Below are positions 961-1,752 of a stretch of DNA of 32,000 nt, one piece after another (the first letter of the stretch is position 1; each line of letters starts with the position of its first letter). The position numbers and the translations under genes were made by a program. The DNA lies in contig JBHLRO010000018.1 of the NCBI GenBank assembly GCA_048882505.1, positions 1 through 32,000 of the forward strand, given 5' to 3'. This DNA is from Candidatus Thorarchaeota archaeon. GTDB taxonomy: Archaea; Asgardarchaeota; Heimdallarchaeia; Hodarchaeales; Hodarchaeaceae. The notes below the pieces were generated by a model that was not told the origin of the DNA, made no database searches, and saw only the letters and a list, made by a program, of their open reading frames with translations.

Positions 961-1752
961 TTAACGGCTTTTCCGAGTTGCTATCCTTTCTGAAACGAAG
1001 TTGACTCGGCTGCAGAGTGCTATAAAGAGGTCATACATCCGCCTAAGATCCAAGGACTCATTAATGAGCGAATAGATTCTAATCGTTGGGTCGTCGGCAG
1101 AATCAATAGAAATCCGCACCAGTCCTTCTCGATTGTTGTAAATAGACTTAAGCAGATCTTTGTCACCAAGGAGAAAGAGACCGCTCTTCTGAGAAGTAGC
1201 TTTAATCAAAAAATACTCATCTAGGCTGGGAACGTTGAGAGTGATTGTATCAAGAGTGAATAACAGATCCTGATGCTTTCGGATTTGCCCTTCCTCCTTT
1301 TTTGGGATGATTTGAAGTTTTGTTTGGATTTTTCCTTTCTTGGCATTAGCTTCCAAAGCGATATAGTCCTTGGCTCCTGAAAACCATGAAATGATGACAG
1401 ACAACATCAGATGGCGTTCTTCCAGCGCAAAAACTACCCGAAAGTCTTTAAAAGGAGGTGAATAAGATCCTTTATAACGGGGAATTAGGAGGCCTCCATT
1501 GGAGGAGAGTTGGTCTACAATTAAGTCATCAAACTCCTGAGAGAACACATCAAGTAATAATTCACGATTTTTCTCAACGATTTTGTGGTTTTTTCTTCTG
1601 CCAGCCCAGAGCAAGTAGAAAGTATAGAATAGAATTAATGCAGGACCGATTAATGGGAGGACGAGATCCAACCAAGAGTAAGAGCCCGTCTGAAGGAAAA
1701 ATTGGCTCAGATTTTGAAAGAATTCCATCACTAGGTAAAAGAACGCCATCAT
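961..1752 (-). CDS. Single-pass membrane protein, CCDC47/DUF1682 (PAT complex subunit)-like
   Basis: One TM helix (LIGPALILFYTFYLLW) followed directly by AGRRKN...F and later R-x3-L-x-V-x9-D. Both motifs and their spacing match CCDC47 as recalled (IGKNKN...SNF; KRQDLLNV...SD). The CDS is clearly real; the family call is by eye. Confidence 0.6.
   Translation of the reverse strand: MMAFFYLVMEFFQNLSQFFLQTGSYSWLDLVLPLIGPALILFYTFYLLWAGRRKNHKIVEKNRELLLDVFSQEFDDLIVDQLSSNGGLLIPRYKGSYSPPFKDFRVVFALEERHLMLSVIISWFSGAKDYIALEANAKKGKIQTKLQIIPKKEEGQIRKHQDLLFTLDTITLNVPSLDEYFLIKATSQKSGLFLLGDKDLLKSIYNNREGLVRISIDSADDPTIRIYSLINESLDLRRMYDLFIALCSRVNFVSERIATRKSR

Follow-up and report, generated by a model that had tools for sequence, protein, structure and literature searches.

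CCDC47 (calumin), a subunit of the PAT complex and the multipass translocon (PDB 6W6L chain 7, 7TM3/7TUT chain 4 and 9I78 chain 4), aids membrane-protein assembly at the eukaryotic endoplasmic reticulum and scaffolds Asterix, Sec61 and the ribosome. The protein of ~483 amino acids (aa) carries a signal peptide, an acidic lumenal region, one transmembrane (TM) helix leading into a G-(K/R)-x-K-N motif, a cytosolic alpha/beta domain, and a tail of ~80 residues made up of the C-terminal coiled-coil/latch helices, which in the 6W6L and 7TM3 papers is reportedly the part that reaches Sec61 and the ribosome. Mycobacterial TtfA (trehalose monomycolate (TMM) transport factor A; PDB 6T84) works with MmpL3, has a disordered C-terminal region and takes part in mycolate export, a process irrelevant to archaea. 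A further described type is CstY, a protein with a single transmembrane segment (TMS) and roughly 210 aa that is encoded in cstA-cstX-arsA clusters (Castillo and Saier 2010, PMC2963123) and has been suggested, from gene context, to assist CstA and ArsA (PMC2963123). CCDC47 is called conserved across eukaryotes in multipass-translocon work (McGilvray et al., PMC7505659), and a survey of Asgard eukaryotic signature proteins lists homologues of OST and TRAP but not of CCDC47 (Eme et al. 2023, PMC10307638). A literature search found no published link between CCDC47 and Asgard archaea, or between CCDC47 and TtfA. Here, a gene for a tail-less CCDC47-like membrane protein, P0001, is described from the first 32,000 nucleotides (nt) of contig JBHLRO010000018.1 (the window) in the genome of a Candidatus Thorarchaeota archaeon of the Hodarchaeales [GenBank assembly GCA_048882505.1].

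P0001 is a genuine but very distant relative of the CCDC47 core, and it is probable that this homologue of the core serves as a membrane-anchored docking platform on the cytoplasmic side. A preliminary description, made from the sequence without database searches, had read the gene as an archaeal CCDC47-like core without the latch helices, and this reading is supported on every point checked. The gene predicts a protein with a short N-terminal helix, one TM helix, the motif GRRKN and a cytoplasmic alpha/beta domain of ~200 aa (Table 1). Kyte-Doolittle hydropathy identifies one TM helix, with 19-residue windows peaking at start residues 23-34. There are no Lys or Arg residues in positions 1-27 and six in positions 51-70, and this restriction to the C-terminal flank of the TM helix fits an N-out/C-in orientation. 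Only 27 residues, one of them acidic, precede the TM helix, and a signal peptide and an acidic lumenal region of the CCDC47 type are not present. The N-terminal helix, for which an extracellular or interfacial position is predicted, is missing from other subfamilies in the alignment, and the FFLQ motif that follows it is specific to the close clade, with L20 and Q21 invariant there only. P0001 has 66 homologues, of which 59 are full-length (246 aa or more) and 52-75% identical and the remainder are fragments or partial records; those with source names are from Candidatus Heimdallarchaeota, Hodarchaeales or Promethearchaeota, and one close homologue bears a precomputed PF07946 (CCDC47) tag in the database. 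Short open reading frames (ORFs) that overlap the gene on both strands were set aside as they lack support.

The fold provides the clearest link to CCDC47. A model of P0001 predicted by AlphaFold2 (AF2) from 36 homologues has a mean predicted local distance difference test (pLDDT) value of 80.6 and a predicted TM-score (pTM) of 0.73, and consists of a helix at residues 2-18, a long helix at 27-69 that includes the TM segment, the alpha/beta domain and a final helix at 236-262. In the Foldseek comparison that the preliminary description had proposed, the top three PDB matches (7tm3_4, 9i78_4 and 6w6l_7; E 1e-6 to 5e-6) are all CCDC47, and were confirmed as the rabbit, Chaetomium and human proteins, respectively, by searching the PDB with a retrieved CCDC47 sequence. 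In VIA-align, Z is 16.1 for 7tm3_4 (219 residues aligned, root-mean-square deviation (rmsd) 4.0), 14.5 for 9i78_4 (214 aligned, rmsd 3.7) and 11.9 for 6w6l_7 (185 aligned, rmsd 3.5). The only other protein in this range is TtfA (6t84; Z 11.5, 160/178 residues aligned, rmsd 3.7), and the next-best unrelated chain reaches Z 6.3. A search of 48,161 representative PDB chains that was independent of Foldseek gave Z values of at least 8 only for 7tut_4 (16.2), 9i78_4 (14.5) and 6t84_A (11.5). The weights of AF2 are older than the release of all matched CCDC47 and TtfA structures. The aligned span runs from model residue 30 to 263 and from CCDC47 residue 135 to 405 (the end falling at 404-405), and thus covers the TM helix and the entire cytosolic globular domain, with the ~80-residue C-terminal coiled coil lying outside it. 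Eukaryotic CCDC47 clusters are also recovered in the ESM Atlas with TM-scores of 0.67-0.68 to P0001, though at a feature rank of only 22.

At Z 5.4-6.4, below CCDC47 and TtfA, the model next most resembles type III secretion chaperones and YbjN/DR_1245-like proteins, whose small alpha/beta folds bind polypeptides. This resemblance may hint at a deeper origin of the domain.

The relationship can also be detected in sequence. Pfam PF07946 (CCDC47, formerly DUF1682) has a gathering cut-off of 27.7 bits, and the Pfam search that the preliminary description had proposed gave a divided answer: P0001 itself falls below this value, yet weak matches are consistent across the family and three Asgard relatives pass. 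Matches are found in 20/36 close homologues of P0001 (best E 8.8e-6) and extend over nearly the full length of several distant relatives. The relatives above the cut-off, L038 (242 aa, 35.8 bits), L021 (305 aa, 32.5 bits) and L022 (233 aa, 31.8 bits), are detected at E ~1e-32 to 1e-36 by a family profile that contains P0001. When the whole 4.3-Mb genome was scanned with PF07946, matches were found in three places only, and these are the same three paralogues that the independent family profile finds. To obtain eukaryotic sequences for profile comparison, databases were searched with a 48-residue stretch of mammalian CCDC47, which is identical (100%) to CCDC47 entries there, and all further work relied on the sequences so retrieved. 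The resulting eukaryotic alignment (A3) holds 16 CCDC47 sequences, all from vertebrates, and is shallow (effective number of sequences 1.5). Aligned to A3 with hhalign, the 28-row alignment A6, which includes P0001, gave Prob 89.2% and P 2.2e-6 over 207 columns, and a 51-row Asgard alignment gave Prob 75.6% and P 2.4e-5 over 208 columns. Profile A2 reached Prob 22.6% and P 9e-4 over 97 columns, and A1, the close clade alone, gave no meaningful match (0.5%, P 0.13, 64 columns). Control comparisons with a JAMM profile, an E2 profile and reversed CCDC47 gave P 0.18-0.5.

In the hhalign register, G51xxxN55 coincides with GKNKN of CCDC47, F74 with the Phe of ESNF, R113 with the Arg of KRQDLL, and D129 with a conserved Asp located sixteen positions after this Arg. 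The preliminary description had singled out these same positions, and all are present in the translated ORF: the TM helix leads into G51-R-R-K-N55, the distance from G51 to F74 is exactly 23 residues and that from R113, the first residue of R113-H-L-M-L-S-V, to D129 is exactly 16, and the later segments LDEYFLIKA (177-185) and DKDLLKSIYNNREGLVRISID (197-217) are found as quoted. The spacings that it had given for the human protein are also correct, as retrieved vertebrate CCDC47 contains GKNKN...ESNF and KRQDLLNV...(S/C)D at the same distances, in register in hhalign. Across 28 aligned sequences with identities as low as 19%, N55, R113 and D129 are the only invariant columns, and G51 is nearly invariant, indicating that truly constrained positions had been chosen. 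P0001 and CCDC47 have in common the TM helix and its motif, the order of elements at Z 16 over ~215 residues, the conserved N/R/D with their spacings, and the last helix of the globular domain.

Several observations weigh against this reading. P0001 scores 14.8 bits (E 0.016) with PF07946, below the cut-off of 27.7 bits, and, in the scan of the genome, 12 bits. Profiles restricted to the close clade fail to reach CCDC47, and only the more diverse Asgard profiles do so; likewise, phmmer with P0001 and hmmsearch with profiles A1 and A2 found no CCDC47 match among PDB sequences. The soluble domain without the TM helix and GxxKN segment matches vertebrate CCDC47 marginally (hhalign P 0.03-0.05), so the fold comparison is the main evidence for that domain. 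Confidence is low in two of the five AF2 models (pLDDT 60-62), and the modelling of residues 114-122 is poor. Finally, a scaffold function for P0001 would be argued by analogy, and no partner was found. Weak matches of A1 to Mrs2 and L30 in the PDB (E 0.4-0.7) were dismissed as chance.

The low identity of P0001 to CCDC47 (9-14%) is what would be expected if the resemblance were convergent or generic, a TM helix and basic flank joined to a common alpha/beta sandwich with no shared ancestry. Most of the profile-profile score does come from the TM and juxtamembrane segment, and the domain also resembles the type III secretion chaperone and YbjN-like folds at Z ~6. However, the gap between Z 11.5-16.2 for CCDC47 and TtfA and ~6 for all other folds among the 48,161 chains is clear, the same elements occur in the same order across ~210 residues, all three polar residues that are invariant fall on positions conserved in CCDC47, and Asgard relatives pass the curated Pfam cut-off. 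Convergence is thus considered highly improbable.

P0001 is a member of a family of small TM-anchored proteins that extends across prokaryotes, with CCDC47, TtfA and DUF3137 (PF11335) as its named relatives, and the family is not an Asgard-only invention of a proto-endoplasmic reticulum (proto-ER). A representative search of 1.84 billion proteins with A1 recovered 25 relatives, all of 58-281 aa and none from a eukaryote; those with names are from Hodarchaeales, Hermodarchaeota and one member of the Bathyarchaeia that is annotated DUF3137. The Bathyarchaeia protein (P0085) scores 31.7 bits with DUF3137 and 26.8 bits with the CCDC47 model and, by matching both, bridges the two Pfam families. P0001 itself does not match PF11335, 4/36 close homologues do (best E 0.02), and the distant relative P0087 scores 21.5 bits. 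In the ESM Atlas, the nearest clusters to P0001 are unannotated proteins of ~220-250 aa from Chloroflexota, Acidobacteriota and Heimdallarchaeota (feature score 0.94-0.95, TM-score 0.68-0.73). No longer or fused forms of the family were found with the A2 profile, which is weak evidence for their absence. TtfA and DUF3137 proteins share with P0001 the N-terminal TM anchor and the same alpha/beta domain, but TtfA is only 2% identical to P0001 and no MmpL/RND gene lies beside the P0001 gene.

Within the Asgard archaea, P0001 is a young, strongly conserved and tail-less branch that is restricted to one genus of Hodarchaeales, with a sister form in the order. The close-clade profile gives full-strength matches (360-484 bits) in each of the 20 further genomes sampled from its GTDB genus, or 21/21 with its own, and the sister form (151-163 bits) is present in 2/2 genomes of another family in this order. 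No other match of either strength was obtained among the 301 Asgard genomes sampled, 106 of which contain a member of the family as a whole. In a maximum-likelihood tree of 49 Asgard members and 5 vertebrate CCDC47 sequences (235 columns), the P0001 clade and the sister form group with ultrafast bootstrap (UFBoot) support of 99-100, and the type found on contig 9 of the same genome joins them at UFBoot 96, with a Hermodarchaeota sequence placed beside it at weak support (51). Vertebrate CCDC47 falls on a very long branch beside some CstA-linked members (UFBoot 70), a position that was not used to name a donor clade. P0001 need not be the direct ancestor of CCDC47.

The family profile detects three members in this genome, P0001 on contig 18 (the contig of the window) and paralogues on contigs 9 and 25 (Table 1). 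The neighbours of the contig-9 gene are unrelated metabolic genes. The contig-25 gene forms a module with cstA, which begins 535 nt downstream, a gene with a DUF2148 ferredoxin domain and two genes for ArsA/Get3-type ATPases, and the cstA-arsA arrangement recurs in eight Asgard loci. This arrangement fits the published description of CstY. Like the CstY type, P0001 is a single-TMS protein of the same family (~210-240 aa in the CstY type), but its gene is not accompanied by cstA or arsA, an additional helix is present at its N-terminus, and it falls in a different clade.

P0001 could be a subunit that assists a membrane transporter whose gene lies elsewhere in the genome, a role proposed for CstY alongside CstA/ArsA and established for TtfA alongside MmpL3. 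The contig-25 paralogue and the eight similar Asgard loci, the agreement of that paralogue with a single-TMS protein of roughly 210 aa, and the TtfA match at Z 11.5 over 160/178 residues are consistent with such a role. However, no transporter gene, CstA and ArsA included, is found within 6 kb of the P0001 copy in any of 21 loci, and P0001 is far from the CstA-linked group in the family tree. This alternative is judged unlikely.

A comparison of the C-terminal ends bears on whether P0001 could act as CCDC47 does. Residues 237-255 of P0001 align in hhalign with CCDC47 residues 377-395 and the protein stops at residue 263, equivalent to CCDC47 residue 395-405, so that the coiled-coil tail is absent, as is the acidic lumenal region; both absences had been noted in the preliminary description. 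Its remark that no Asterix-like gene is in view can be extended to the whole genome, where the best match to Asterix (WDR83OS, PF03669) is at noise level (E 0.89, 11.5 bits) and in no credible ORF, although a very divergent small partner could escape this search. Matches at E 0.89 level are also obtained in control genomes. Of the other partners it had proposed looking for, an insertase of the EMC3/TMCO1 family (PF01956, 64.5 bits) is encoded on another contig, as expected from archaeal control genomes. Lacking latch helices and a detectable Asterix, P0001 probably does not perform the ribosome- and Sec61-gating role of CCDC47.

The insertase and the homology in TM helix, motif and domain would nevertheless be compatible with a working archaeal PAT complex or multipass-translocon scaffold, in which P0001 would stand beside SecYEG and a YidC/Oxa1-like insertase on membrane-bound ribosomes and aid the assembly of multi-pass proteins. 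Further encouragement for such a role is found in relatives from other Heimdallarchaeia (family f3; L021 and L025-L029) that share the TM helix, motif and domain with P0001 but also carry a K/E-rich C-terminal stretch, giving proteins of 299-308 aa. These are detected by the family profile at E 1e-28 to 1e-34. The AF2 model of L021 (pLDDT 93.7) ends in a 56-residue helix, and the sequence aligns to positions 8-314 of the 326 in PF07946 at the 32.5 bits given above; L025, at 22.1 bits, is below the cut-off. Against CCDC47 the L021 model has Z 18.0 over 233 residues, and against 9i78_4 it can be followed to residue 445 (Z 16.4, rmsd 13.6); models of this family align with CCDC47 chains up to residue 445-474. 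To judge from the models, the tail-bearing forms are architecturally nearer to CCDC47 than P0001 is, so that the class may contain a form that reaches the ribosome, for which f3 may be the better candidate. P0001, in contrast, has no tail, Asterix is at noise level, the nearest relatives in the family are proteins of bacteria and archaea with links to transporters and NTPases, and no secY, insertase gene or ribosomal gene adjoins the P0001 gene. That P0001 itself is a PAT-type scaffold is decidedly unlikely.

In all 7 of the f3 loci a Ras-like small GTPase gene is located 63-98 nt upstream on the same strand. A KaiC-like ATPase gene adjoins the family member in 8/9 sampled loci of Heimdall families f4-f7 (L022, L030 and L032-L037), and is upstream on the same strand in 6. 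Together with the ArsA and Arf-like cases, four subfamilies adjoin genes for P-loop NTPases (KaiC-like, ArsA, Ras-like and Arf-like). This adjacency could be a hint that the proteins act as receptors for NTPases, or a matter of chance in genomes rich in NTPases.

The favoured interpretation of P0001 is a docking scaffold, since the relatives that have been characterised or placed in context are all membrane-anchored platforms on a polytopic membrane machine. P0001 is a predicted single-pass protein with the N-terminal helix outside or at the interface and a domain of ~210 aa facing the cytoplasm. The TM helix, G-x-x-K-N motif and alpha/beta domain are homologous to the TM-plus-cytosolic core of CCDC47, in a superfamily that also includes mycobacterial TtfA, DUF3137 and CstY-type proteins. 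By analogy with these, P0001 would most likely hold a partner at the inner face of the membrane.

Table 1. Positions of the P0001 gene, its predicted segments, neighbouring genes and related loci. Positions are those of the window unless a contig or locus is given.
Feature	Contig or locus	Position	Strand	Remarks
P0001, tail-less CCDC47-like membrane protein	window	961-1752	(-)	uninterrupted ORF, 263 aa and stop
Amphipathic or hydrophobic N-terminal helix, aa 2-18	window	1699-1749	(-)	AF2 secondary structure
Single TM helix, ~aa 28-50	window	1603-1671	(-)	Kyte-Doolittle; AF2; matches CCDC47 TM helix, chain residues 135 onward
Juxtamembrane G51-R-R-K-N55, positive-inside flank	window	1588-1602	(-)	alignments; onto GKNKN of CCDC47 by hhalign
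Cytoplasmic alpha/beta domain, aa 56-235	window	1048-1587	(-)	AF2 model and VIA-align to CCDC47
Invariant R113 (alpha/beta domain)	window	1414-1416	(-)	
Invariant D129 (alpha/beta domain)	window	1366-1368	(-)	
C-terminal helix, aa 236-262	window	967-1047	(-)	AF2; equivalent to last helix of CCDC47 globular domain; nothing after
JAMM/MPN+ isopeptidase	window	1798-2340	(-)	Pfam Prok-JAB 5e-13, JAB 1e-11; 45 nt upstream of P0001
E2 ubiquitin-conjugating enzyme	window	2368-2913	(-)	Pfam UQ_con 5e-23; first of E2-JAMM-X row
Spacer between JAMM and P0001 genes	window	1753-1797		45 nt; weak TTATTAA only
Arf-family small GTPase	window	355-930	(+)	Pfam Arf 2e-47; convergent, stop 31 nt from P0001 stop
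Second Arf-like gene	window	1-345		
588-aa protein	window	6426-8192	(+)	PCI/winged-helix domain match, 23.2 bits
Roadblock/LC7 and Arf/Ras-like GTPase pair	window	14090-15197	(+)	
Paralogue	contig 9	110859-111602		
Paralogue	contig 25	7654-8283		
cstA-arsA module with paralogue	contig 25 (L008)	7597-14126		
Tail-bearing Heimdallarchaeia form	L021	8113-9027	(+)	family f3
Sister-family locus	L012	2275-3373	(+)	

Whereas CCDC47 is eukaryotic translocon machinery, the context of P0001 is one of ubiquitin-like and Arf-like genes. The preliminary description had placed the gene behind those for E2 and JAMM proteins, and both are indeed upstream on the same strand, forming a co-oriented row E2-JAMM-P0001 with spacers of 27 nt and 45 nt. 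This row and the two convergent Arf-like genes are kept in all 20 related loci with enough flank. Genes for a ubiquitin-like protein, E1, ESCRT-II Vps36/EAP30, Roadblock and eIF2-alpha are also found in the neighbourhood. The loci that show this order all belong to a single genus, whose genomes are syntenic over a region of ~12 kb that includes ThrRS and CGI-121, and the conservation of gene order may consequently reflect no more than recent common descent.

In most orthologous loci the spacer between JAMM and the P0001 gene is 60-190 nt long, and a TATA-like box (AATAATTTAAATT or AACAAATAAATTT) is located ~25-30 nt before the ATG. Consensus matching finds such AT-rich boxes in the spacers of L011, L066, L067, L069, L071 and L081. 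Their position suggests that the orthologues have a separate promoter and a short or absent leader.

The gene of the sister family (L012) is in a different setting. It lies 13 nt behind genes for a 177-aa protein with a sub-threshold HBS1_N match (22.7 bits) and a membrane-anchored zf-AN1 protein, and precedes genes for M50 and YhfC intramembrane proteases and grpE-dnaK-dnaJ. This context is suggestive of proteostasis, yet differs from that of P0001.

Taken at face value, the arrangement would make P0001 a membrane anchor or adaptor of the ubiquitin-like system, bringing E2 and/or JAMM, and perhaps the Arf-like GTPases, to the membrane. The tight, co-oriented row with its order kept in 20/20 loci is in line with this, as is the sister-family gene close behind a membrane zf-AN1 protein gene in a protease and DnaK/DnaJ/GrpE neighbourhood. 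However, the conserved order is confined to one syntenic genus, distant relatives have quite different neighbours, the longer spacers with a TATA-like box in most orthologues suggest a separate promoter, and no clear JAMM orthologue was found outside the genus, the matches in that search being too weak. A complex prediction for E2, JAMM and P0001 residues 52-263 scored 0.01, which gives no answer and counts neither way. The adjacency is one of gene order, and any functional coupling of P0001 to E2 or JAMM, like any PAT-complex function, is hypothetical. An adaptor of this kind is regarded as rather unlikely. The two ideas can be combined in a proto-ER quality-control adaptor at a SecYEG/insertase site, where P0001 would recruit E2/JAMM, and possibly the Arf-like GTPases, to membrane-bound ribosomes or misassembled membrane proteins. 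If true, this would foreshadow the translocon-linked ubiquitin or UFM1 surveillance of eukaryotes, but it is the least probable of the readings considered here, and a docking platform built on a CCDC47-type core is preferred.

Hodarchaeales have been proposed as the closest archaeal kin of eukaryotes, and the presence of a genuine relative in this order implies that the scaffold core of CCDC47 predates eukaryotes. The core probably arose from the prokaryotic family of small membrane-anchored docking proteins, and the family of P0001 offers a concrete entry point to the question of how the multipass translocon came to be assembled. P0001 itself is of limited value, being a paralogue without a tail and confined to one genus; other Heimdallarchaeia have forms closer to CCDC47, and some relatives already pass the Pfam model.

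Two further regions of the window were noted. The gene for the 588-aa protein adjoins the E1/Ubl genes, an SPFH/Band 7 gene and the ESCRT-II Vps36/EAP30 gene, and an orthologue of its product in another assembly has a faint precomputed match to E3_UFM1_ligase (PF09743). Further along is a pairing typical of Asgard archaea, a Roadblock/LC7 gene with an Arf/Ras-like GTPase gene immediately after it; genes for Gins51, eIF2-alpha and an archaeal prepilin peptidase are nearby.

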